DNA of 64,000 bases. It comes from an uncultured Planctomycetota bacterium (GTDB lineage: Bacteria; Planctomycetota; Planctomycetia; Isosphaerales; Isosphaeraceae). Within the stretch, counting starts at the first letter, position 1. Each line of letters begins with the position of its first letter. Where the stretch lies: positions 6,656,001 to 6,720,000 of the forward strand of contig CAVTTN010000002.1 in the NCBI GenBank assembly GCA_963737655.1, written 5' to 3'. The notes under the pieces are model-generated. The model had not been told where the DNA came from and did not search any database. It was given only the letters and a program-made list of their open reading frames with translations. This document shows, one piece after another, positions 4,865 through 58,806 of this stretch. Position numbers and translations under genes: made by a program.

Positions 4865-6739
4865 TCATTCCCCATCGGCGACCGCATTCATCGGCGCCTC
4901 GTCGGCCCGCAACGCCTCGATCTGATTCGAATACGCGGCGACCAGCTCCCGGCGGCTGAGGAGGCCGACGAGATGGCCGGGGTCGTCGGGATCGACCACG
5001 GGGATTTCCTCCAGGTTCAGGCCGGTCAAGCGACGGAGGGCGGTGTGGAGGTCGTCCCTCGGCGTGACGGTGACCACCGGCCGGGTCGCCAGGTCGTCGG
5101 CCAGGACGAGCGAGCCCAGATGCGACCCGAGCAGGGCCATTCGGAGGTCTCTCAGCGAAAAAATCCCGGTGAACCGATTGGCCGAATCGACCACCGGGAA
5201 CAGCGTCTCGGGCGAGTTCGCCACGATCCGCACGACCTGATCGAACGGCAGGGCCTCGGGCACCCGCTCGATCCCCTCGACCCGGATGCGGACGTCCTTG
5301 ACCTTGATCCTCTCCAAAACATCGACGACGAAATCTCCCTGATGCGCCGGGCTGTCGATCGGGCTGGGCACCTGTTCTTCGTACAGGGTCCAGCCGCGAG
5401 ACAGGGCGACGTTCAACCCGCAGACGAGCATCAACGGGACGAGCAGGCGGTAGTGGCCGGTCATCTCGCAGACCATCACGATCGACGCCAGAGGGGTCTT
5501 GGACACCCCGGCGAAGAACCCGCCCATGCCGACCAGGGCGAAGGCGGCCGGGTCGATCAGGTCGCCCCGGGGCAAGAATTCCCGGAAGAACTGGCCGGCC
5601 GCCCCGCCGAGCATCCCCCCGATGAAGACCGACGGCCCGAACACGCCTCCGCTCCCTCCGGAGCTGATCGTCAACCCGGTGGAGACGATCTTCATCAGCG
5701 CGAGCAGGGCGAGCATCCGGAAGCCCATCTGAGGGACGAACGGGCGGACCCCCGGCCCGAACGGCATGGCGCCCTCGCGGAAGAACTCCGAGGGCATGCC
5801 GATCGCCCCCCACTGGACCCATCCATAGCCGCCGGTCATCAATTCCGGGAGGGCCAGGGCCATCAACCCCAGGAGGAACCCGCCGACGGCCGGCTTGACG
5901 TGCCGGGGGATCGGCATCGGGTGGAAGAACCTGTCGCGGAGGCCGTAGAACACCTTCACATACAGCCAGCCCACCGCCGCGCACAGGAAGGCGAAGATCG
6001 TGAACAGGGGGATCTCGCGGAACCCGTGGAAGGCCAGGTCCGGGACGATGAAGATCGGCTGGGGCGTGATGAACAGGGCGAACGTCGAATAGGCGACGAT
6101 CGAGCTGGCCAGGCAGGGGAGCAGGGCGACGGATTCGGTGGCGGTCGTCGCGTACAGGACCTCCCCGGCGAACAACGCCCCGCCCAGGGGGGCGCGGAAG
6201 ATCGCGCCGATGCCCCCGGCGGCGCCGGAGAGCATGAGCAACCGCCGTTCGCCCGGGGTGAGCTTCAGGAGCCGGGCCAGGGCCGAGCCGAACCCGGCGC
6301 CGATCTGCGCGATCGGCCCTTCCTGGCCGGCCGATCCGCCGGAACCGATGGTGATGACCGACGCCACGGCCTTGATAATCGGCACCCGGCCGCGGATCTG
6401 CCCGCCCCCTCGGTGGAAGGCGCGGACCAGGGCGTCGGTGCCGTGCCCCTCGGCCTCGGGGGCGAGCGAGAAGACGATCAGGCCCGAGATCAGGCCGCCG
6501 ATGGTCGGCACGAGCAGGACGAGCCACCAGGGATGGGGCGAGGTGACCGGCCCGGCCGAACCCTCGCCCGTCGGCGGCATGTGGAAGCCCAGGAGGCCGC
6601 CCAGGAGCACCCGTTGGGTGGCATCCAGCGCGAGCAGGAAGGCGACGGCTCCGAGGCCGGCGACCATCCCGACGACCGGGCTGCACACCGTCGCCCGGCC
6701 CGTGCCTGGGGTGGCCCAGCGGGTGACCAGGCGGTTCAA
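4865..6739 (-). CDS. ClC chloride channel/antiporter with C-terminal CBS pair
   Basis: EGHGTD, GSAGQEGP, FRAPLGG, GGVFGP motifs, many TM helices, CBS domains. Confidence 0.92.
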   Translation of the reverse strand: MNRLVTRWATPGTGRATVCSPVVGMVAGLGAVAFLLALDATQRVLLGGLLGFHMPPTGEGSAGPVTSPHPWWLVLLVPTIGGLISGLIVFSLAPEAEGHGTDALVRAFHRGGGQIRGRVPIIKAVASVITIGSGGSAGQEGPIAQIGAGFGSALARLLKLTPGERRLLMLSGAAGGIGAIFRAPLGGALFAGEVLYATTATESVALLPCLASSIVAYSTFALFITPQPIFIVPDLAFHGFREIPLFTIFAFLCAAVGWLYVKVFYGLRDRFFHPMPIPRHVKPAVGGFLLGLMALALPELMTGGYGWVQWGAIGMPSEFFREGAMPFGPGVRPFVPQMGFRMLALLALMKIVSTGLTISSGGSGGVFGPSVFIGGMLGGAAGQFFREFLPRGDLIDPAAFALVGMGGFFAGVSKTPLASIVMVCEMTGHYRLLVPLMLVCGLNVALSRGWTLYEEQVPSPIDSPAHQGDFVVDVLERIKVKDVRIRVEGIERVPEALPFDQVVRIVANSPETLFPVVDSANRFTGIFSLRDLRMALLGSHLGSLVLADDLATRPVVTVTPRDDLHTALRRLTGLNLEEIPVVDPDDPGHLVGLLSRRELVAAYSNQIEALRADEAPMNAVADGE

Positions 6740-44962: not shown

Positions 44963-44985
44963 TTGGTGCATTTCATGCGCCCTAC
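44963..44985 (-). repeat. GTAG-type REP overlapping the phosphodiesterase stop codon
   Basis: Minus strand GTAGGGCGCATGAAATGCACCAA; its TAG is the stop at 44982-44984. Confidence 0.8.
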
Positions 44986-46648
44986 AGGTATCCGAGATCC
45001 GCCAGGCGTTGCTGGATCGCGGCGTCTTCCTCTTCGGAGTACGCCACGCCGACGGGGGCGCCGGACGACGGAAGCGGCTCGGGCGATTCGGAGGCCGGCG
45101 GGGGGACGACCGCCGGGTCGAGGATCTCGTCGAGGACCCGACCGTCCATGTCTCCGGGCACCGGCACGCCCAGGAGGTGGAGGACCGTGGGCGCGATGTC
45201 CAGGAGCGTGGCCCCCTCGGGCCTGGAACCCGGGCGGAACGCCGGCCCGAGGCGATCAGGACCCCTTCCATCCGGTGGTCCCCCGTCGGGCCGAACGCCG
45301 GGGAGATCGTCTTGTGAGTGGTGAAGTCGTACAGGCCGATCGTCCGGTATTTCCAGTCCCCCAGGACCACCGTGAGGTCCGGCCCCAGATGCGCATGAGG
45401 CCCCGAATAGAGGTCGTCCCGCTCGAAGACCCGCTCGATCAGGGGGGCGCCGGTCTCGGGATGAGGGATCGCCAGGAGACGGGCCTTGAGGTCGTCCAGG
45501 ACGCTCCGGGCGTCGGCCGGCTCGACGCATCCCCGGGGCTGTCGGCCCTTCAAATTCAGGAAGATCTGGCCGAAGTTCCCCTGGGCATAGGCCCTGGTTC
45601 GTGACCAGTCGATATGCCGTCGAGAGAGGAACGAGGCGTCGGCCAGACGGTCGAGCCAGTTCATCTGCTTCCCTCGGAAGCGATCGACCCGGTTCTTCGC
45701 CAGCCCGAACTTGCTGATCAGCCCATAAAACCATTCGGGGGTGACCCCGCGGTCCCAGAACCAGCGCTTCTGCTTCACGTAGAGCGAATCCTGGAGCGCG
45801 ATGAAGCCCTGCTCCAGCAGCCAGACGTTGAAATTCACGTACTGTTCGATCGGCCCGAAGCCGTGGTCGCTCATCAGGATCAGGGCGGTCCCCGGCGGCA
45901 GCGCGGCCTCGATCTCGCCGATCCCCCGGTCCAGCCGTTCCCAGAACGCGCGGAACCCCTCGCGGACGGCCGAGAGGTCCCGCCCCCTGGCCTTCGCATG
46001 AGACGGGTCCCACGCATGCCAGAGCTCGTGCTGGATGCGGTCGGTGGCCATCAGGTCGAACATGAACAGGTCCCACGGACACCGATCCATGAGGAACCGG
46101 ACGGCCTTCAGGTGGTGGTCGAGGAAGTCGGTCAGATCGGCCAGAGCCGCCGGCTCCTTGCCGCCGTCGTGGACGGCCGCCGACCACGGCCGATAGGGCG
46201 TCCCGAGGGCCTGTTCCAGCTCCGCGAGCAAGGCCGGGTCGCTCGAAAAATCCTTCGCGCCGGCCGGGCTCAGGAAGTCGCCGAGATAGAAGCCCGGGGC
46301 CTTCCGGGGCGGGTAGCTCATCGGGACGCCGCCGGCCACCGTCGTCTTGCCATGACGCCCGGCGATCTCCCAGACCAGCTCCGCCTGGATCGCCCGGGAC
46401 GAATTGACGCGCCCGCCCATCGGGTCATGGCCGAATTCGAGGAACTCGAACACCCCATGCTTCCCCGAGTTCTTCCCCGTCATCACGCCGGTCCAGGCCA
46501 CCGGGCTCAGAGGCGGGAACACCGAACCCAGCAATCCCGACGCCCCAGCCGCTCGGAGCCGGGCCAGGTTCGGCAGCGACCCGGCCTCGATCAAGGGAGC
46601 CAGGATGTCCCAGGTGGCCCCATCCAGGCCCAGTACAAAGACCTTCAT
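44982..46648 (-). CDS. Alkaline phosphatase superfamily / type I phosphodiesterase (apparent 1-nt deletion near 45246)
   Basis: VLGLDGATW, TGKNSGKHG, SDHGFG, TGDH; second frame gives LLDIAPTVL..MDGRV..LADLGYL. Confidence 0.88.
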
Positions 46649-46944
46649 CCATCCGCCCTCACATGCTTCAACAACCTCGCCACCGACCCGACGCCCGGCT
46701 CCGAGTGTACTCCAACGGCGCGAAACCTGTAAGGTCGGACGGACCCCACCGATCGCCCTGACCCACACTTCTTGCGCCTCGTCGTGCCATCAACTTCGAC
46801 GGTCTTGCCTTATCCCTAAGCAAGACCTCCCGGGCCGCAAGATCGCCGACCCTTCGCCTCAGCCTGGCAGATTTTTCGCAAGTCCTTGGCTTATGAGTAG
46901 TTAGTATCAAAGCCCTGGATCAGTTCTAGGCATTTTTCGCACAC

Positions 46945-46960
46945 TGGCACGTCTCCTGCT
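46945..46960 (+). promoter_or_regulatory. sigma54 (-24/-12) promoter
   Basis: TGGCACG-TCTC-CTGCT with exact GG-N10-GC spacing; predicted +1 near 46971. Confidence 0.75.
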
Positions 46961-46970
46961 TTATTCCTAT

Positions 46971-47081
46971 TTCGTGAATCGCGGGTGACCGCGAGACGGT
47001 CTTCCGGGACCGATTGAATCACGAGCAAGCGTCGTTCTCCCTGGCTGTGCCCGGCTCCCTCGGGGGGAGCCGGGCTTTTTT
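46971..47081 (+). ncRNA. Candidate structured small RNA (~110 nt)
   Basis: Three-way junction with GUGA and UCCG tetraloop hairpins, starting at the predicted sigma54 +1 and ending in an intrinsic terminator. Confidence 0.65.
47049..47081 (+). terminator. Rho-independent terminator
   Basis: GCCCGGCTCCC-TCGGG-GGGAGCCGGGC followed by TTTTTT. Confidence 0.88.
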
Positions 47082-47149
47082 CGTTATTGCCCTGCGCCAT
47101 AACGGTTACAAGAATGGAGGTGAACCCCGGGGCACACAAAGGGCACACA

Positions 47150-47903
47150 ATGCGGCGGTCCAACTCGAGTCCCTTCTGGCGCGAATCCAAGGGCGCCTTC
47201 TACTGCTGGATCGACGGCCACCAGCGGTCCCTGGGCAAGACCAGGCGGGCGGCGGACGCCCGGTACCGCGAACTCCTGGCCGACCGCGAAAAGCTGGCCG
47301 CCCGGCGGCCCTGGACGGTCCGCGAGTGCTTCGACCACTACCTCGAGCACGCCGCCACCCTCAAGCCCAACTCGTTCCGCAATCGCAGGCAGGCCCTCGA
47401 CCGCTTCTGCGCCGAGGCCGTGGTCGGGCGGCTGCCCTATTACGACCTGACGGTCGACCACCTCGAGGCCTGGGTCCGGCGGCACCCCGGCTGGTCCGCC
47501 TCGATGCGGCGGACCTGCATCGATCACGTCATGGCGGCCTTCAACCACTGCCTGAAGCGGAAGAAGATCCGCGAGAACCCGGTCCTCGGGGTGGAGAAGC
47601 CCCGGTGGGAGCGGCGCAAGGCCGTCCTCGGCGCCGAGGACGAGCGGAAGGTCCACGAGGCCGCGAAGGGGGAGTTCCGGGACATCCTGACGGCCCTCCG
47701 CGAGACCGGGGCCCGGCCCGGCGAGCTCTGCTCGGCCCGGGTCGAGCACTACGCCAAGGGCGTGATCACCCTGTCCGAGCACAAGGAAGACGCCTCGGGC
47801 GAGCCCCGGACGATCTACCTGAGCGACGCGATCGCGGCCCTGGTGGAGCGCCGGATCGCCGGGCGGGCCGAAGGCCCGATCTTCCTCAACGACCGGGGCA
47901 AGC
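47150..47903 (+). pseudogene. Tyrosine recombinase/integrase, C-terminally truncated
   Basis: Short N-terminal arm domain, core-binding domain (ENPV) and catalytic Arg in ETGARPGEL; similarity ends at PIFLNDRGK, with no HxxR or Tyr. Confidence 0.82.
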
Positions 47904-47974
47904 AGTCTGGCCGGGCGGCGACCACTCCGACGACTCGGGGTCCGTGCGGCGGAGCCGGCCTCGGCGCGGGCCGC

Positions 47975-49137
47975 CTAGTGCAGATTCAAGGCTGATCCTT
48001 TTCGAAGGCATCGTCGTAGAGAGGGTATGAAGCCACCCCTGTTCGTCCGCCCGTTGTCCCCCGAGGAGCACCGGGCCCTTAGGGACGGCCTGCGCTCCCC
48101 CTCGGCCTTCACCCTGCGGCGCTCCCAGATCCTCCTGGCCAGCGCCGAGGGGCTCAAGCCCGCCCTGATCGGCGCCCGGCTCGGCGGCTCGGCGCAGACC
48201 GCCCGCAACGCTATCCGCGCCTTCCACGCCATCGGCACCGACTGCCTCAACGAGGGCTCGCATCGCCCCAGGTCCGCCCGGCCGGAGATCGACGACGCCG
48301 GGTGCGAGCGGCTGCGGGCCCTGCTGCACCGCAGCCCCCGCGACTTCGGCAAGCCGACCTCGCTCTGGACGCTGGCCCTGGCCGCCGAGGTCGCCTTCGC
48401 CGAGGGCCTGACCGCGCGGCCGGTCAGCGGCGAGACGATCCGCCAGGCCCTGAGGCGCCTCGGAGCCGGCTGGGAGCGGGCCAAGGCCTGGATCACCAGC
48501 CCCGACCCGGCGTACCTGCGAAAAGAAACGCGCGCGACCGGCTGATCCGCCTGGCGGCGTCGCACCCCGACTGGGTGCTCGGCTTCCAGGACGAGGTCTG
48601 GTGGAGCCGGCTGGCCCGGCCGGCGCTGCATGCCTGGGCCGGCGGCCAGCCGCGGCGGCTGCGCGAGCCGGCGGCCGACGCCGCCGACACCGACCCGAAG
48701 GCGCCGGCCTGCTACGGGCTGCTGCGCGGCGACACCGGCGGGATGCTGCTGCGGTTCGTCCGGGGCCGGCCGGTCAGCCAGGTGACCGAGGACTTCCTGG
48801 CCTGGGCCTGCACGCGGCTGCCGGCCGAGGGGAAGCGTGCGCCGTTGCTGGTCTGGGACAACGCCGCCTGGCATGTCAGCGCGCGGGCGAGGGCCTGGAT
48901 CAAGGCGCACAACCGCCGGGCGAAGGCCGAGGGCGGGGTGCGGATCATCGCCTGCTACCTGCCGGTGAAGGCGCCGTGGCTCAACGCGATCGAGCCGAAG
49001 TGGGTGCATGGCAAGCGCGCGATCATCGAGCCGGACCGCAAGCTGACAGCGGCCGAGGTCATGGAGCGGGTCTGCGGCTACTACGGTTGCGAGCAACTCG
49101 ATCGACTCACACAACAAGCCGCTTGAAAATGCACTAG
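47975..49137 (+). mobile_element. IS630 family insertion sequence (two ORFs, -1 frameshift)
   Basis: Ends CTAGTGCAGATTCAAG / CTTGAAAATGCACTAG; HTH ORF 48027-48545; DDE ORF to 49126 (QDE, WDNAAWH, LNAIEPKW). Confidence 0.92.
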
Positions 49138-49270
49138 GTCTTCCTCCTCCCGATGCGAGAAGTCCGCGGCCCGGCCCTGGGCCGGGCCATGGTCCACGTC
49201 GTCGACCGCGAGGCCGACTCCGTCGCCCACCGGCGGCAGTGGTCGGCCGACGGCACCTGGCCCTGGTCTT
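49138..49270 (+). pseudogene. IS4-like transposase remnant
   Basis: LPMREVRG...MVHVVDREADSVAHRRQWSADG contains the DREAD motif. Confidence 0.5.
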
Positions 49271-49994
49271 TGCCGAGGGCTGCAAGATCCTTCGGAAGGA
49301 CGAGGCGGCGGCCGAGCACGCCCTCGAGGATCGATACGGTGCGGCCCTCGCCGACCCCCGGCCGTCGACGACCCCCGGGGAGGAGGCAGGGTGTCCGGCC
49401 GGGCCCGCTGCCCTGCCCTCCCGACCCGCGAGGAGCGATCACCGATCCGCGCGGGTCGGGGGCCGAGATCGGGCGTCCGTCGCGAGGGATCCCCGGTTGA
49501 GAGGCCGTCCCCCCGCGTCGGTCACGCCGTTCGGGGCGTCGGCCGGGCCTTCCGATCGGCCGTGGCGGACGCCATCGGGGTGGACTCCCCCGGCCCATCT
49601 CCCCGCGATGAAGCCCTGGGACCCCGAGGCCCCTCCTCGGTCGACGAGGGATCCCGGCGGTGGCTGGCGGCGGTCCCCGGACCGACTCGGTGTCGACGAC
49701 CCGACCGCGTCGAGCGGGGCGGATCTCCGTCCGGGTTACGATCCCCAGGGCGGCCGGCCACTCGTCGCCCTTCGGAGGCCGCCGTCGACGGCGTCTCCTC
49801 CCCCCTCCTCGCTCTTTCGGGGTCCGGGACGAGCCACGACGAGGGACCCCGCGGCGGCAGGGCGGCCCCTTCGGATGTTTCGTAGGACGGCGAACTGGGA
49901 AGTAACCGGCCGGCGACGCGGGGGCCTCGCGAGCCGGTGACGATGGACGCGGCCCGGGTGGGCCGGGCAAGAACCCAAATGAGGAGGTCCAGCC

Positions 49995-50477
49995 ATGGCG
50001 ATGAAGGACGAGGGGCCGATCGGGCCCGAAGGCGACCTGCCCGCGGAGGTCGCGGCGGCCCTGGCGGGCGTCGATCGCGCGATCGGCCGGCTCGTCAAGC
50101 TCCTGGCGACCGGCGACCCGGCCACGCTGGCCGGGGCGTTGGGGGTCATCGAGCGGCCGGGCACGGCGACGATCCCGGCCCTGGCCTCGGCCCTGCGGCG
50201 GGCGACGCCCGACCAGGGCCTGATCATCATCGCCCTGCTGCACGTGCTGGAGGCCCCCCTGGGCGGCCCGGCCGGCCGGGCCCTGGTGGAGGTCGTCCGC
50301 AGGCCCCGCGTCCCGGAGATGCGGACCCTGGCCCAGATGACCATCTCGGCCAGGAAGATGGCCGAGCTGAAGGCGGCCGCATCCGCGACGCTGCCGGTCG
50401 CCGACGGCCCCGCCTCGCCGTCGCGGCCCGGCCGGCCGCGACGCCGCCCCCGCGCGACCCCGGCCGACCCCGCCTGA
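49995..50477 (+). CDS. Hypothetical helical protein
   Basis: GAGGAGG RBS, coding-like codon usage. Confidence 0.65.
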   Translation: MAMKDEGPIGPEGDLPAEVAAALAGVDRAIGRLVKLLATGDPATLAGALGVIERPGTATIPALASALRRATPDQGLIIIALLHVLEAPLGGPAGRALVEVVRRPRVPEMRTLAQMTISARKMAELKAAASATLPVADGPASPSRPGRPRRRPRATPADPA

Positions 50478-50565
50478 GGGGCCACGCCCGGGGGATCGCG
50501 CCGGCCCTCCCCCCGGGTCATCCCCCCGAACCCCCGACCGTGCGGCCCCCCGAGCGGAGGTGACG

Positions 50566-51138
50566 ATGAGCCCTGACCCCGACCCCTCGATGGACGCCGT
50601 CGGCGACGCGGCCGATTGCCCGACGCCCGAGCCGCCCGACGCCCCGGCCGGGGACGGCCCCGGGACCCAGGCGGGCCTCCTGCGCCGCCAGCTCGCCGGC
50701 CTGGACCTCCACGGCGCCTCGGGCCTCCGGCCGCTGATCGAGGTCGACGACTTCGTCGCCTACCTCGACGGCGCGGCCCGCGACGCCGGCGGGCCGGCCG
50801 ACCCGGTGGAGCGGATGCTCCTGGAACAGATGGTGGCCGCCCATCACGCCGTCGGGCGGGTGCTGGTGGAGGCCGCCAGCACGCGGGCGGTGGAGGCGGC
50901 GACGGCCTACCTCGGCGCCGCGGCCCGGCTGATGGCCGAGCACCGCGAGACGGCCCTGGCCCTGAGGGAGTACCGCTCCGCCGGGGCCGCCGGCCTCGCC
51001 CGCCCGGGCCAGGGCGACCCCCGCGTCGCGGCCGCCGGCCCGGAGGCCCTCGGGCCCCGGCTGGTGGAGGCCGGCGGGACCGACGGGCCGCCCGCTTCGA
51101 GGGGGGTGGGCCGTGGCCGAGCCGGCCGGGCCGCCTGA
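50566..51138 (+). CDS. Hypothetical protein of a phage/integrative-element module
   Basis: GGAGGTG RBS; PADPVERMLLEQMVAAHH...LALREYR. Confidence 0.7.
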   Translation: MSPDPDPSMDAVGDAADCPTPEPPDAPAGDGPGTQAGLLRRQLAGLDLHGASGLRPLIEVDDFVAYLDGAARDAGGPADPVERMLLEQMVAAHHAVGRVLVEAASTRAVEAATAYLGAAARLMAEHRETALALREYRSAGAAGLARPGQGDPRVAAAGPEALGPRLVEAGGTDGPPASRGVGRGRAGRAA

Positions 51139-51472
51139 GCCGCCCAGGGTCCGGGCCGGGCGGAGGAACCGGGCGCTGCGGGTGGGGCTGACGCCCGGGG
51201 GCCGGGAACGCCTGCGGGAGGCCGCCCGGGCGGGCCGGCCGTGGGAGCACGCCACCGGGCCGAGGACGGCCGAGGGCAAGGCCCGCTCGGCGGCGAACGG
51301 CCGGGCCGGGCAGTCGGGCGAGGCCTCCGCCCGCGGCCTCCGCGCCGAGCTCGCCGGGGTCCGGGCGCTGCTGGCCCGGATGCGCGAGGCCCGCCGCCAC
51401 CTGGCCCCGGCGCCCGGGCCGCGAGCCGACGACGACCGGCCGATCGCGGCCGAGGGCGCCCCCGAGGCCTGA
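51113..51472 (+). CDS. Small protein with STGP/TGPRTxEGK motif (HGGxSTG-related)
   Basis: LTPGGRERLREAA...PWEHATGPRTAEGKARSAANG. Confidence 0.7.
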   Translation: MAEPAGPPEPPRVRAGRRNRALRVGLTPGGRERLREAARAGRPWEHATGPRTAEGKARSAANGRAGQSGEASARGLRAELAGVRALLARMREARRHLAPAPGPRADDDRPIAAEGAPEA

Positions 51473-52012
51473 GGCGAGGCCGGCCCCGGGGACCCTGCCG
51501 GCCCCGGCACCGGGCCGGCGGTCGGCTCACGGCCTCGGGGCGGGACGGCCCGCCGCTGGGGCCTCCGCCCGGGGAAACCGCCTCCTGTCGGCATGCTGGC
51601 GGGACCGCGGACGTCCGGGTGAGGCGTGGGCCGGGGCCGCCCGGCCCTCGATCCAGGAAGTGGCGAGGCCCGCCACGCCGCGAGGCCCGGGCCTCGCGGA
51701 CGGGAGCCTTGCCGCTCGTCGGTCGCGGGTTTGGCAGGGGGGCCCGGCCGGGCCTCCTCCGGAGGCCCGTCGGAGACACGTCGCGGTTTCTCGTCGTCTT
51801 TCCGCACTTCCCCGCCGCCGCCGGATGGGGCCGGGCGAGGGCTGCCGGGGTCCTGGCGACTGCCACGACGGCGCCCGAGGTCGTGGCGGGCGGGGCGATG
51901 ACTGCGCCCCCGGAGAGGTCCCGGCCCCCGGCTCGTGCCGCCGGCCCCCGGCGACCCGGCCGGCGAGCGTTCTCGGGGTTCGGGATCGCCCATCGGTCGC
52001 CCAGGCCCCGGG

Positions 52013-52215
52013 CCCTGTCCGGTGAACCGCAAGCGGGACCCGCAGTTCGACGGGGAGGCGTACCGGCGGCGGGACGTGGTGGGCGATGCGCCATGTGGCT
52101 GAAGGAGAGCCGCCGGCTGGCGACCCGCCCCGAGGAGCCGGCGGTGGACTCCCAGGCGATGGTCGGACCGGCCATGATCCGCCGCGGCTTCAAGGCCCGC
52201 GGATCACCGGACGGG
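52013..52215 (+). pseudogene. IS5 family transposase C-terminal remnant
   Basis: NRKRDPQFDGEAYRRRDVV/RCAMWLKESRRLATR..AMV..AMIRR resembles YRxRNxVERxxxWLKxxRRxATRxxK. Confidence 0.7.
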
Positions 52216-52289
52216 AGCTGGCCGAGTGGCCGGAGGCGAACGGGCCGTAAGGGCTTGCGGTCTTCGCCCCGCCGGTGGCCCCGCCCCCG

Positions 52290-52511
52290 ATAGCGGCGGG
52301 TGATGACCGAGCCGAGGCGCCCGAACGAGGAGCCGGGGCCGCGGACTCGTTTGGCGGGGCCGTTCCCGCGCTGGCCGGCGGCCCTCCGCCTGGTCGGCGT
52401 CGTGATGCCGGAGATCGGCGACGAGCGGGAGGGGAGCCGCAAGCGGCTCGCGATGAAGCCGGACCGGCCCGCCGCCGGGCCGGGAATCCGAAGGATCGGA
52501 GTTGCACCACC
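52290..52511 (+). pseudogene. IS256 family transposase C-terminal remnant
   Basis: RPNEE...RTRLAGPFP...ALRLVGVVMPEIGDEREGSRKRLAM resembles ERLNxExxRRTRVxxxFP..LRLV..EEW. Confidence 0.65.
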
Positions 52512-52712
52512 CCGAAACTTATCGGCAACGACTCAAACACCCACAGCCCCTCTCGCCCCTCCTCGACCCCGGGCGCGTCGGCCCGTCCCTTGAGCCGCCG
52601 GCCGGGCGGTGGCATGATCGAGCCAACCCCACCCGGCCGCCGATCTTCGGAAGAAATTCCGGGCCGGCGCGCGCCCGCGACGTCGCGGGCGTCTCTTCCA
52701 GGGGAGGCACCC

Positions 52713-53270
52713 ATGCCCTTCGACGACGACGCCGGCCGGCCGATGGAGAACTTCCGCGAGTACCTCCGCCTCCTGGCCAGGGGCGGGCTGGACCCGAAGC
52801 TCCGCGGCGCCCTGGACCCTTCCGACCTCGTCCAGCAGACGCTCCTGAGGGCGCACCGCCAGAGGGACCAGTTCCGCGGGTCCACCGACGGCGAGCGCGC
52901 CGCCTGGCTGCGAGCGATCCTCGCCCGCCAGATCGCCGACGCCCTCCGCCGCCACGGCCGACGCCCCGAGGGCCGCGCCCGCTCCCTGGAGGCGGCCCTG
53001 GAGGCGTCCTCGGCGCGGCTCGGCGACTGGCTGGCCGCCGAGGCGCCCTCGCCCAGCCGCGTGGCGATGGGCCGGGAGCGGCTCCTGGCGATGGTCGAGG
53101 CGCTGGCCTCGCTGCCCGAGGACCAGAGGACGGCCCTGGAGCTGCGCCACCTCCGCGGCCTGTCGGTCCCCGAGGTCTGCTCAGCGATGGGCCGCACCCT
53201 CCCGGCCGTCGCCGGGCTGCTGCATCGCGGCCTGAAATCCCTGCGCGAGAGGATGGAGGAGGAGCCATGA
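52713..53270 (+). CDS. Planctomycete-type ECF sigma factor
   Basis: FREYLRLLAR..LDPKLRG.LDPSDLVQQTLL, LPEDQR.ALELRHL.GL..EV...MGRT..AVAGLL.RG; GGGGAGG RBS. Confidence 0.92.
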   Translation: MPFDDDAGRPMENFREYLRLLARGGLDPKLRGALDPSDLVQQTLLRAHRQRDQFRGSTDGERAAWLRAILARQIADALRRHGRRPEGRARSLEAALEASSARLGDWLAAEAPSPSRVAMGRERLLAMVEALASLPEDQRTALELRHLRGLSVPEVCSAMGRTLPAVAGLLHRGLKSLRERMEEEP

Positions 53271-56200
53271 CCGACGCCCCCGCCGCCGACGTCCCGGACC
53301 GCGAGCGACGCCTGTACGAGGCCCTGGGCGACTACTTCGCCGCCGTCGAGGCCGGCCTCGACCCCGACCGCTCCGCCCTGATCGCCCGCCACCCCGACCT
53401 CGCCGACTCGCTCGCCGAGTTCTTCTCCGGCCAGGACCGATTCCACCTCGCCGTCGGGCCTCTGCGCCCGTCGTGGGCGACGACCACGACGGGCCGTCCC
53501 CCGACCCGGCGCACACCGACGGCTCCGGGGGGATGGCCCCGCGTCGGCCCTCGCCAAGCGCCCGGACCTCGCTCTGGACCGACGGCGAGCGGCCGCCCGG
53601 GCTGGCCCTCCGCGACCCCGACCCGGCCGACGGCCCGCCCGGACTGCCCCGCCCCGGCCCCCTGCCAAGCTTCGCCGACGACGGCCGGCCGCCCCGCTAT
53701 CAACTCCTGGGCGAGATCGCCCGAGGGGGCATGGGGGCCGTGATCCGCGGCCGGGACGCCGACCTCGGCCGCGACCTGGCCATCAAGGTCCAGCTCGAAG
53801 CCCACCGCGACGACCCCGAGATGCTCCGCCGGTTCGTCGAGGAGGCGCAAATCGGCGGCCAGCTCCAGCACCCCGGGATCGTCCCGGTCTACGACCTCGG
53901 GGCCCTGGCCGACCGCCGCGCCTTCTTCGCCATGAAGCTCGTGCGAGGCCGCACGCTCTCGGCCCTCCTGCGCCAGCGCCCCGAGCCGTCGGCGGACCTG
54001 CCCCGCTACCTCGGCATCTTCGAGCAAGTGGCGCAGACGCTCGCCTACGCCCACGCCCGGGGCGTGATCCACCGCGACCTGAAGCCGTCGAACGTGATGG
54101 TCGGCTCGTTCGGCGAGGTCCAGGTGATGGACTGGGGACTCGCCAAGGTCCTCAAGGAGGGCGGAGAGGCCGACGACGATGCGGCCTCGCGGCCGGACGC
54201 CGGAGCCGGCGCCGTCCGCACCGTCCGCAGCGGCTCGGACGCCGCCGACTCCCGGGCCGGCTCCGTGCTCGGGACGCCCGCCTACATGCCGCCGGAGCAG
54301 GCCCGAGGGGAGATCGACCGCCTCGACGAGCGCGCCGACGTCTTCGGCCTCGGAGCCATCCTCTGCGAGATCCTGACCGGCAAGCCGCCGTTCGTCGGCG
54401 GCACGGCGGCCGAGCTTCGCGACCGCTCCGCCCGCGGCGACCTCGCCGACGCCCTCAGCCGCCTCGATTCCTGCGGCGCCGACGCCGAAATCCTCGACCT
54501 CGCCCGCTCCTGCCTCTCGGCCGACCCGCAATCTCGCCCTCGGGACGCCCGCATCGTCGCTGGGCGGATCACGGCCCATCTCGTGGGCGTCCAGGACCGC
54601 CTCCGAGCCTCGGAGCTGGCCCGCGTCGCCGCCCAGGCCCACGCCGAGGAAGAGGCCCGACGACGACGCCTGACCGTGGCCCTGGCCGGCGCGATCCTCG
54701 CCCTCGTCGTCGTCGGCGGCGGGGCCATCGGGCGGTCGATCCAGCAACGCCGGGTGCGCGACACCCGCATCGTCGCCCTCCTGGACGAGGCCGGCCGCGC
54801 CCTGGACCGCACCGAGAGGGCCGCGGGGCCCCAGGCGACCGCCGCGCGCGAGGCGGCGCGGACCGCCCTCACCACCGCCGAGGAGCTGCTCGGGCGGCGA
54901 TCCCGGGGGCGAACTCGCGGGCCGCCTCGACGCCTCCCGACGGAGGCTGGCGGCCACCGATCGCATCCGGCGCCTGGTCGCCGACCTGGAAGCGATCCGC
55001 GAGGAGTTCGCCGACATTCGGGACGCGGCGAGGTTGGAAGCCGCTTTCTCTGGGGCGTTCCGCGACTTCGGGTGGGACCCGGACCATCCCTCGAATCTCG
55101 ATGCCGGATTGGACCTCGCCATGGTCAGACGACAGGCCGGCGCCGAGATCGCGGTGGCCCTGGACAATTGGTCGAGCTTGCGCCGCGCCTGGGCGCGTGC
55201 GAGCGTAGCCTCGCCGCTGCGATCGCTCGCGGCGGCCTCGCACGCGCTCGATCCCGATCCCTGGAGGGACGGACTCCGAGCCGTGCTGGATCGTCCCGCA
55301 GACGAGGCCCGGGAGGCCCTGCTGCGGCTGGCCGACGACGAGGCCACGTTGCGACGCCAGCCGGCCGCGAGCCTGGTCCTGCTGGCCCAGGAGATCCGGG
55401 CTCTGCCTGACCGGGACCGCTCGGCGGCGATCCTTCGGGCCGCCTGGTCTCGGTTCCCCGGAGACTTCTGGATCGCGCACGACCTGGGGACGATCTCGGG
55501 GGCTCATGGACGATATAACAACCCCGAGGAAGCCGTCCGCTTCCTGACCGCCGCCATTGCGATTCGCCCCGGAAGCAGCGATGCTCACTTCGACCTCGGC
55601 CGAGTCTTGCATAACAAGGGGGACCTCGACGGCGCGGAAGCGGAGTGTCGCGAGGCGATCCGACTCAAGCCCGATCACTCTGGGGCTCACTTGAACCTCG
55701 GCGTCGCCCTGCGCCACAAGGGAGACCTCGACGGCGCATTAGCGGAGTATCGCGAGGCGATCCGACTCCAGCCCGATGACGCAGGGGCTCACAGGAACCT
55801 CGGCGGCGCATTGCTTGGAAAGGGGGACCTCGACGGCGCATTAGCGGAGTGTCGCGAGGCGATCCGACTCCAGCCCGATCTCGCAGACGCTCACAGCAAC
55901 CTCGGCGGCGCCCTGCAGGACAAGGGGGACCTCGACGGCGCATTAGCGGAGTATCGCGAGGCGATCCGACTCAAGCCTGATCACGCAGGGGCTCACTTGA
56001 ACCTCGGCGACGCATTGCTTGACAAGAGGGAACTCGACGGCGCGGTAGCGGAGTATCGCGAGGCGATCCGACTCAAGCCCGATCACGCAGGGGCTCACAA
56101 CAACCTCGGCCAGACGCTCCAGGCGCAGGGTCGCTACACCGAAGCCCTCGCAGAAATCCGTACCGGTCACGCGCTGGGCTCCCGACTTCCCGACTGGAGA

Positions 56201-57177: not shown

Positions 57178-58806
57178 ATGACGCCCTTCCGCAACCCCCT
57201 GGCCCGATTTCGCACGACCGAACGCCTCCCCCGCCGCGGGCGCCGGGAGCTCCGATTCGAGGCCCTCGAAGGGCGCGCCCTGCTCTCGGGGATCGCCACC
57301 ATCACCGAGTTCCCCGCGGCGAGCGTCAACGCCGCGACCGGCGGGATCGTGGCAGGCCCCGACGGAAACCTCTGGTTCACCGAATCCGCGACCAACGCGA
57401 TCGGCATGATCAACCCGACCACTCACGCGGTCAGTTCCTTCGCCACTCCCACGGCGAGTTCGGACCCATGGGGAATCACGGTGGGAGCCGACGGCAACCT
57501 CTGGTTCACCGAACAGGGCGCGAACAAGGTCGGCATGATCAACCCAGCAACTCACGTCATGAGCGAGTTCGACACTCCGACCACCAACTCGGGTCCCAGG
57601 GCGATCACGGCAGGCCCAGACGGCAACCTCTGGTTCACCGAGATCCATTCCTACAAGATCGGGGTCATCAACCCGACGACCCATGCCATGAGCGAGTTCG
57701 CCCTGACGAACTCGGCCGTCGTCATGGGCGACGGAATCACCGCGGGCTCCGACGGCAACATCTGGTTCTGCGACCAGGGCTGGCAGGAGGTGGGGATGAT
57801 CAGCCCGACCACCCACGCCATTTCGTTTTTCGGGGTCGGAAAGTCAGCTTGGGGAATCGCATCCGGACCCGACGGTAACCTTTGGTTCACGGGGAATGGG
57901 TTCAACGGCACACCCAGGGGCATCGGCACCATCAACCCGACCACCCACGCCGTCTCTTCCTACACCACGGTTCCGATACCGCGGGGCATTACGACAGGCT
58001 CCGACAACAACCTCTGGTTCCTGGAGCCGAATAATGGCCAGATCGGCCGGATCGCTCCGACCACCGGCACCATCACCGAGTACCCGATCCCTTCGGTCAG
58101 CACGACCGGTGACAGCCTCACGACTGGCCCCGACGGCAACCTCTGGTTCATTGATAGCAACAACAACGCGATCGGCGAAGCCACCCTCACCACGTCTCAA
58201 CTCGTCGTGACGCAACGGCCGAGCACGGTCACCGCGGGCAACCTGTTCGGGCTCACGGTCGCGGCGGAGGATTCCTCGGGGAACCTCCTGACCTCGTACA
58301 ACGGCCCCCTGACGGTGTCTCTCGGGAACAACCCCGGCGGTGGCACGCTCGGCGGCACGCTCACGGCGACGGCGACGGACGGCGTGGCCACGTTCTCGGG
58401 GCTATCTCTCACGACGGCCGCGACGGGCTACACGCTGGGGGTCTCCGGCGGCGGGTTCGGGATCGGGACGACGTCGGCCTTCGCCGTGACGCCCGCGGCG
58501 GCCACGCAGATCGTGGTCACCTCGCAGCCGCCGTCGAGCGTCGCGACCAACACGGCGTTCACCGTCGTCGCGACCATCGAGGACCAGTACGGCAACGTCG
58601 TGACCTCGGCCAACAACTCGGTGACGGTGTCGCTGGGGAGCAACCCGGGCGGCTCGACGCTGGGCGGGACGACGACCGCCACGGCCGTGGACGGGGTCGT
58701 CACGTTCTCGGCCCTGAAGCTGAACAAGAAGGGCAAGGGATACACGCTCCGGCTCGCCTCGGCGGGGCTGACGGGGGCGACGACCTCCGCGTTCAACGTC
58801 TCCTGA
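57178..58806 (+). CDS. Secreted Vgb-like beta-propeller protein with Ig-like tail
   Basis: RFEALEGRALLS N-terminus; seven GPDGNLWF-type repeats; two QxPSxV...GVATFSGL domains. Confidence 0.88.
   Translation: MTPFRNPLARFRTTERLPRRGRRELRFEALEGRALLSGIATITEFPAASVNAATGGIVAGPDGNLWFTESATNAIGMINPTTHAVSSFATPTASSDPWGITVGADGNLWFTEQGANKVGMINPATHVMSEFDTPTTNSGPRAITAGPDGNLWFTEIHSYKIGVINPTTHAMSEFALTNSAVVMGDGITAGSDGNIWFCDQGWQEVGMISPTTHAISFFGVGKSAWGIASGPDGNLWFTGNGFNGTPRGIGTINPTTHAVSSYTTVPIPRGITTGSDNNLWFLEPNNGQIGRIAPTTGTITEYPIPSVSTTGDSLTTGPDGNLWFIDSNNNAIGEATLTTSQLVVTQRPSTVTAGNLFGLTVAAEDSSGNLLTSYNGPLTVSLGNNPGGGTLGGTLTATATDGVATFSGLSLTTAATGYTLGVSGGGFGIGTTSAFAVTPAAATQIVVTSQPPSSVATNTAFTVVATIEDQYGNVVTSANNSVTVSLGSNPGGSTLGGTTTATAVDGVVTFSALKLNKKGKGYTLRLASAGLTGATTSAFNVS

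Follow-up and report, generated by a model that had tools for sequence, protein, structure and literature searches.

The window (the whole 64 000-nt stretch of DNA that was analysed, G000:C2:6656001-6720000) contains a predicted small RNA (sRNA) gene on the plus strand at 46971-47081, with a divergent upstream neighbour, a gene of the type I phosphodiesterase/nucleotide pyrophosphatase family (44982-46651, minus strand; PF01663, E-value 2e-33). Downstream, on the same strand as the sRNA, a short direct repeat (47129-47149) lies just before a truncated tyrosine integrase gene (47150-47995; partial PF00589 match with E-value 3.6e-4, below the cut-off). The integrase gene starts 69 nt past the sRNA terminator and is followed by an IS630-like insertion sequence (47975-49137, plus strand; HTH and DDE_3 frames, PF13565 and PF13358) with imperfect terminal inverted repeats, whose ends were read by eye. 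The phosphodiesterase-family gene has a frameshift near its 3' end, with the C-terminus in a second frame; this could be a real break or an assembly indel. The regulatory region of the sRNA gene reaches upstream to 46785.

The predicted transcript is 111 nt long; its start was derived from a sigma54 promoter box and its end from an intrinsic terminator found by scan (47049-47081, plus strand: stem at 47049-47075 and T6 at 47076-47081). Homolog transcripts, delimited in the same way by box-derived start and terminator end, would be 101-187 nt long. The 5' domain (46971-47016) folds into a three-way junction with two hairpins and is followed by a conserved core predicted to be single-stranded (47018-47048). 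For 46971-47081 we obtained a minimum free energy of -54.4 kcal/mol (z-score -2.72; 1 of 200 shuffles was equally stable), and for the 5' domain folded alone a z-score of -2.73 (4 of 200 shuffles). An earlier note on this DNA had described an outer stem, a GTGA hairpin, a second hairpin and the terminator, and all of them were recovered: the outer stem (46972-46977 with 47019-47024) had pair probabilities of 0.86-0.98, and the hairpins are at 46979-46994 and 46997-47012. The second hairpin had been called a UNCG hairpin; it is present, but its UCCG loop is closed by U-G, while the canonical UNCG loop has a C-G closing pair. The proposal of one non-coding transcript of ~110 nt agrees with the predicted promoter and terminator. 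Comparison of the homologs points the same way, as they have a promoter and a terminator of their own and no conserved ORF, with no ATG at all in 33 of 69 copies. In a soil metatranscriptome (one run, share 0.12) a single 151-nt contig with depth 2 was observed over the core of a homologous locus (L078); the contig extends beyond the terminator, may be DNA and was left out of the evidence.

A BLAST query of positions 46880-47150 against 40 relatives (24 from the same family) matched just the 3' part, ~47016-47082, with 85-99% identity in 17 of the 24 same-family genomes. A 27-letter pattern was found at 65 loci among 185 579 genomes; 64 of these loci are labelled planctomycete, many of them Isosphaeraceae, and the remaining locus carries the label 'bacterium' only. 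We built a covariance model on the 3' ~70-71 nt of the sRNA. Among 61 genomes of the family Isosphaeraceae (completeness of at least 90%) the model matched 47 (46 at full length) with scores of 71-99 bits, and the sRNA was single-copy in each carrier genome except for a duplication in one of them (G487). Genomes of the same class but of other families (114) scored no higher than 25.3 bits, and in five weak loci that we inspected outside the family the core was absent. One locus from another family (L135, G025:C261:3531-3598, minus strand; 24 bits) has a similar terminator behind a CU-rich stretch, with only 53 nt upstream on its contig. A 15-letter pattern gave, in 400 genomes of the phylum, nine places in eight genomes, none with the remaining core or the terminator, and two patterns gave no matches in viral contigs. 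The predicted sRNA gene is, by these comparisons, common to most Isosphaeraceae, with nothing convincing in other families.

The predicted pairing seed, 16 nt at 47029-47044 on the plus strand (GCGUCGUUCUCCCUGG), was invariant in 80 of 80 aligned copies; this count is inflated because loci found by pattern had to contain the 16 nt, and the same invariance was observed in 18 copies found by BLAST. The seed is CU-rich and anti-Shine-Dalgarno (anti-SD)-like. In the window sequence the core had a mean unpaired probability of 0.71, while across 67 homologs the value per seed base averaged only 0.2-0.7; no covarying or conserved structure was detected in the core of the aligned homologs. One genus (g16; L018, L082, L099 and L129-L131) has retained the seed and shows drift in the 5' half of its core. 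In the terminator alignment 97.1% of cells are paired, and compensatory changes were observed at 3 of 11 pairs (37 cells), a covariation exceeding all 500 shuffles and all slid controls. The whole 5' part varies in length and sequence and has no detectable homology among 67 homologs; GNRA and UNCG loops occur together in 1 of the 67, and a stem closing the 5' end on the core in 4. The three-way junction, offered as the defining structure, did not survive this comparison: it is specific to this genome, lies in a hypervariable domain and is not the conserved part of the predicted sRNA gene. The earlier note had missed the main signals, which are the 16 invariant nt of the core and the activator sites in tandem.

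The sigma54 -24/-12 promoter box (46945-46960, plus strand; TGGCACG-N4-CTGCT) has its GC at 46958-46959, and the transcription start is therefore predicted at 46971. Taken by itself, the window gives no more box matches than chance would (one, with 0.62 expected). Scored against the sigma54 consensus, boxes reaching at least 9/12 were observed in 64 of 69 loci (after removal of duplicates) versus 49 of 1445 control windows, with GG and TGC as the invariant positions of the homolog boxes. When a matrix was made from 67 homolog boxes, that of the window being left out, the window box ranked second among 91 sites of the genome with >12 bits. A set of 58 metagenome loci contained 43 distinct ones with sufficient flank, and 40 of the 43 had the box. 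The sigma54-type promoter claimed earlier is thus found at its place and, judged at the level of sequence, is conserved across homologs.

Two tandem 17-bp sites, 21 bp apart (46785-46822, plus strand) and 160 bp upstream of the box, are predicted to be the UAS of a sigma54 enhancer-binding activator. We observed the tandem motif at -175 to -150 in 56 of 66 homologs (in 52 at -161 to -155), with 6-9 in shuffles. As the motif was seeded by eye from the same loci, the held-out tests count most: in the held-out window the best UAS site scored 14.6 bits, at -160, with the second best at 1.7 bits, and among scorable new metagenome loci 33 of 35 had the tandem motif at -165 to -145. Between UAS and promoter there is an AT-rich tract with IHF-like sites (46876-46917); the AT fraction was 0.55-0.64 in bins 80-41 bp upstream of the box versus 0.40-0.50 farther upstream. 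Matches to the IHF consensus at 7 or more of 9 positions were seen in 36 of 67 loci near the box and in 10 of 67 far from it, and the TATCAA site at 46905-46917 agrees with 8 of the 9 defined positions. Both the tract and the consensus matches speak for the IHF-like site that had been suspected here. A conserved GG-N10-GC box at -24/-12, activator sites 80-200 bp upstream and a bending-protein site in between are the sequence-level features of sigma54-dependent genes, and all of them were observed here.

The genome has rpoN and ~13 activator genes, encodes RNase E/G and carries two genes of HU/IHF type. An HU/IHF-family gene (G000:C2:2646390-2647231) adjoins a csrA paralog. The other strong sigma54 sites of the genome stay below the UAS score of the window (the best reaches 13.5, at -48), which suggests a dedicated activator. 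Co-occurrence across genomes singled out no one activator. A REC-AAA-HTH protein (G000:C2:1897682) was found in 41 of the 47 carriers and also in 9 of the 14 non-carriers; it is absent from genus g16, whose UAS also scores poorly; the case for this protein as the activator is suggestive only, and the comparison of its paralog (C2:7344722-7346134) covered seven genomes. Paralogous sRNAs were sought as well: among the top 80 sigma54 sites of the genome a strong terminator was found only behind the box described here, and two other sites precede weak terminators.

According to our own gene caller, the phosphodiesterase-family gene adjoins the sRNA upstream in 52 of 68 loci. Downstream genes vary: the nearest one is convergent in 38 of the 68 loci, any given downstream family was seen in at most three, and the integrase family of the window follows the sRNA in two. 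At ten syntenic sites examined in non-carriers (one of which offered a 511-nt flank only) UAS and RNA were jointly absent from all ten, with the phosphodiesterase gene kept; it follows that the sRNA unit is chromosomal and was lost whole in some lineages. One of the ten (L429 in G459) retains an orphan sigma54-like box ~185 nt away from the start of the phosphodiesterase gene, with neither UAS nor RNA; this box may be left over from loss of the gene. From its synteny, the predicted sRNA gene is a core chromosomal gene and no part of the adjacent island.

The closest relative of the integrase, a protein of 330 aa, is encoded at the same site in another genome (G016) and is 55% identical over residues 1-251. 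The next closest relative (39%), in G534, adjoins an exact 25-bp copy of the terminator 3' half, located 119.6 kb downstream of the sRNA of that genome, and a similar short tandem repeat is present at both ends of the G534 island. This integrated element of ~120 kb (L120 to L401, G534:C1:724350-844015) has GC up to 0.79 and the terminator repeat at its borders. At another locus (L106) an exact 62-bp duplicate of core and terminator was observed 433 bp downstream. The earlier suggestion that the RNA is an integration landmark gains from the duplicated terminator 3' half beside an integrase in G534. By this comparison the terminator 3' half is the attachment core of related integrases, and the island lies next to the predicted sRNA gene because tyrosine integrases use its terminator as attachment site. 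The direct repeat before the integrase start probably represents arm-type integrase binding sites; repeats of this type were seen downstream of the sRNA in 7 of 69 loci versus 11 of 690 shuffles, numbers that are too small for mapping. No fitting terminator copy of at least 14 nt was found for the far end of the island in this genome; given also the truncated integrase and the IS630-like element behind it, the island here is decayed. The remnant at 49150-55000 has GC 0.78, small hypothetical ORFs and, by eye, an ECF-sigma-like ORF; in the same part of the window a Ser/Thr kinase (PF00069) is split over several frames. Elsewhere in the window, ORFs contain 102-bp repeats (TPR-like, 34 codons) at 55580-56110 and 129-bp repeats (43 codons) at 57343-58193.

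With its anti-SD-like core the gene most likely encodes a base-pairing sRNA acting without Hfq; hfq was found in none of the 61 family genomes, with positive controls. A trans-encoded, Hfq-independent base-pairing sRNA gene of Isosphaeraceae is the best explanation of the locus, and taken as a whole we consider it reasonably probable. The tandem sites at -160 would be occupied by an enhancer-binding activator and the AT-rich tract bent by an IHF/HU-type protein; sigma54 polymerase would start at ~46971 and produce a transcript ending at the terminator. The variable 5' hairpins could form a protective leader, and RNase E may cut at the start of the conserved core, in an ArcZ-like manner. The exposed 16-nt core would then pair over the SD site and the spacer of target mRNAs, blocking translation, with the canonical csrA paralog (csrA1) as one candidate target. 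Separately, tyrosine integrases would use the terminator as attachment site.

Pairing of the seed with start regions was stronger than with coding DNA by -1.28 kcal/mol (25 shuffles gave +0.20 +/- 0.47, none as low), a preference that stems mostly from the anti-SD half. The seed complement differs from the consensus start region of this genome, and in a genome-wide ranking of the best duplexes the top 50 include no start region and the top 500 include 12. Perfect 12-nt seed matches were observed beside start codons in many genomes, in differing genes. Among 50 places read of 86 found by pattern there was no shared target; a second pattern set (81 fetched of 194 places) gave no shared gene beyond close pairs, and 34 pattern matches mapped to orthologs in this genome gave no shared target either. 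Three candidates were rejected: a peptidase gene, for which a comparison of 13 orthologs showed no conserved pairing; csrA pairing across AUG-CUU-GU, which occurs in two paralogs of this genome and is not conserved in relatives; and csrA2, which gave no pairing signal. Further candidates, from pairing predictions in this genome, include an MFS transporter, an FKBP-like and a CsbD-like gene. The csrA2 protein (G000:C2:5251146, plus strand; orthologs L178-L217) is nearly invariant in the family and its gene has a conserved GGA-rich leader, which suggests autoregulation.

There are nine csrA copies in this genome and 5-17 per family genome. In the csrA1 class the core can pair across SD, spacer and start codon; in 21 carriers the median rank of this duplex is in the top 4.9% of start regions, and none of 60 shuffles retaining the anti-SD half did as well. 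In a fixed register, pairing of 8-9 of the 9 bases before AUG was observed in 26 of 31 carriers (a count that leaves out five genomes of unknown carrier status), versus 4 of 11 non-carrier genes and none of 31 outgroup genes, a set that retains a row from a search returning one genome. The background for 8-9/9 pairing is 127 of 4254 genes of this genome (3%), and 15 genes here have 9/9 pairs. The csrA1 gene of this genome reaches 7/9 in the fixed register, yet has a 12-bp helix over AUG. The carrier/non-carrier energy gap of csrA1 was matched by 9 of 60 shuffles and is not significant, and the csrA1 leader folds an SD hairpin of its own, which could explain the leader conservation. The csrA1 lead arose post hoc from four ortholog sets, in which related genomes are not independent and the outgroups have lower GC. 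Genus g16, with the seed kept, has no csrA1-class match; the drift in the 5' half of its core would fit loss of the csrA1 partner, as a single event. That the csrA1 mRNA start region is a target of the predicted sRNA is a tentative proposal, and we would give no more credence to its consequence, that a sigma54-driven sRNA in a host free of Hfq lowers CsrA by pairing over the csrA1 start, without protein sponging. A sigma54-csrA link in Planctomycetia has been reported at promoter level (PMC12316311, text in part). Two of the nine csrA paralogs (G000:C2:3497068 and C2:3925271, both plus strand) lie behind strong sigma54 boxes; one of these is the top-scoring sigma54 box of the genome, and the csrA gene behind it is not csrA1.

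The signals described could also be read in other ways. It seems rather unlikely that the sigma54-driven RNA is a protein-binding or sponge RNA, in which the core and the terminator top would bind a protein or another ncRNA and titrate it. The 16 invariant bases, a terminator conserved beyond the needs of pairing, the fact that no widely shared mRNA target was found, and the multiplicity of csrA (5-17 copies per genome, no Hfq) would all suit such a sponge; against this, the core is without conserved structure and its anti-SD character fits mRNA pairing, and the RNA is not CsrB-like, with no GGA in the core and at most two in the 5' part of 58 of 69 copies. A broad anti-SD RNA dampening many mRNAs, with a target set that turns over between species and no fixed target, is an improbable reading and a variant of the base-pairing explanation with the same chemistry. 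It would account for perfect 12-nt start-codon matches falling in differing genes and for the 15 genes with full 9/9 pairing, but the start-region consensus of this genome differs from the seed complement, and total invariance would be easier to understand with at least one fixed partner.

We give very little credence to the two readings that take the conserved segment out of trans regulation. A cis-acting leader or attenuator of the integrase, an idea of the earlier note, draws on the position of that gene (69 nt past the terminator, same strand) and on a read-through fold that shortens the terminator stem. It is contradicted by synteny, as 38 of 68 downstream genes are convergent, no downstream family occurs in more than three loci and this integrase follows in only two; besides, in G534 the integrase is located at the opposite end of the island, at a distance of 120 kb. 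Hardly more credible is the reading that the segment is no RNA gene and represents either a conserved element of the DNA or the beginning of a small gene on the minus strand: the minus strand does read SD, spacer and TTG, and the site is a recombination target, yet 7 of 69 loci have lost that TTG, the frame length ranges from 4 to 108 codons, and the plus-strand promoter, UAS and covarying terminator all have the same direction.

The locus marks a real and apparently undescribed small-RNA gene, as far as comparative evidence goes. At the gathering threshold there were no Rfam 15 matches for the window and four homolog loci, in agreement with the earlier note, in which no known family could be assigned; best scores were 12-16 bits versus cut-offs of 32-98, and PrrB_RsmZ scored 12 bits versus a cut-off of 44, on the opposite strand. 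ARAGORN reported no tRNA or tmRNA at the sRNA locus; its only prediction in the window was a tRNA-Pro(CGG) at 5742-5833 (minus strand), with an unusual length of 92 nt. We found no description of this RNA in the literature on planctomycete RNAs, csrA and sigma54, as far as partly available texts show and with most subscription journals outside the scope; the main text of a large ncRNA screen, in its available part, does not name planctomycetes (PMC11109978). In the same body of partly available texts we found regulatory sRNAs described neither for Isosphaeraceae nor for other planctomycetes; Hfq is lacking in this group, and csrA is abundant. In our view the locus represents a new family within a known kind of sRNA; as a gene it is well supported, and its function is a prediction. 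The family comes with a complete layout of control elements, a seed without variation and a defined motif for activator binding, and the records include cultured hosts (Singulisphaera acidiphila, Paludisphaera soli, Aquisphaera insulae, Tautonia and Tundrisphaera). The family could give a handle on sRNA action without Hfq in a GC-rich phylum, and its terminator is a neutral integration site already used by mobile elements. If true, csrA1 pairing would tie the expanded planctomycete CsrA system to a two-component/sigma54 signal, and an sRNA with such pairing would be the first regulatory sRNA family for planctomycetes.

Several known classes were considered and rejected: the Hfq-dependent sRNAs (ArcZ, Qrr, GlmZ), given no hfq in 61 genomes; riboswitches and attenuators, given no conserved co-directional downstream gene in 68 loci; and the CsrB/RsmZ sponges, ruled out by the lack of multiple GGA motifs. 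Qrr sRNAs have a sigma54 promoter with activator sites and IHF. In GlmY/GlmZ, likewise, a sigma54 promoter, activator sites and IHF drive an sRNA (PMC3045617, text in part). Both these and Qrr are proteobacterial, whereas the sRNA of the window is without Rfam match and single-copy. CsrB/RsmZ are comparable as small RNAs of a csrA-rich genome, with a possible Csr link here; they bind the CsrA protein, while for the window sRNA pairing with csrA mRNA is proposed, without GGA repeats.

Pxr of myxobacteria resembles the predicted sRNA in its length of ~110 nt, its sigma54 promoter with enhancer site and its multi-stem fold, as well as in being lineage-restricted, in a host without Hfq, and, by prediction, in having long and short forms (PMC5568312, text in part). 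There is no sequence or Rfam match between the two. Pxr lies behind the activator gene nla19, while the window sRNA adjoins a phosphodiesterase gene (from the same available part of PMC5568312), and the conserved parts of Pxr are its 5' stem-loops, whereas the 5' stems of the window sRNA are variable (PMC5684412, text in part). ArcZ of Enterobacterales likewise has a variable 5' portion followed by a strongly conserved 3' stretch of 55-65 nt that closes with the terminator; the conserved segment corresponds to the predicted seed here, and RNase E is encoded in this genome. ArcZ needs Hfq and is controlled by ArcAB, while the window sRNA has no family-level match and its processing is predicted by analogy (PMC11331407, available in part, for both the likeness and the differences). 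Integration into tRNA, tmRNA, csRNA and ffs genes is known, and there, as for the sRNA gene of G534, a small-RNA gene stays intact while its 3' end is copied by a tyrosine integrase; here the target would be a new sRNA, with the terminator 3' half as the duplicated core (PMC12540744, text in part).
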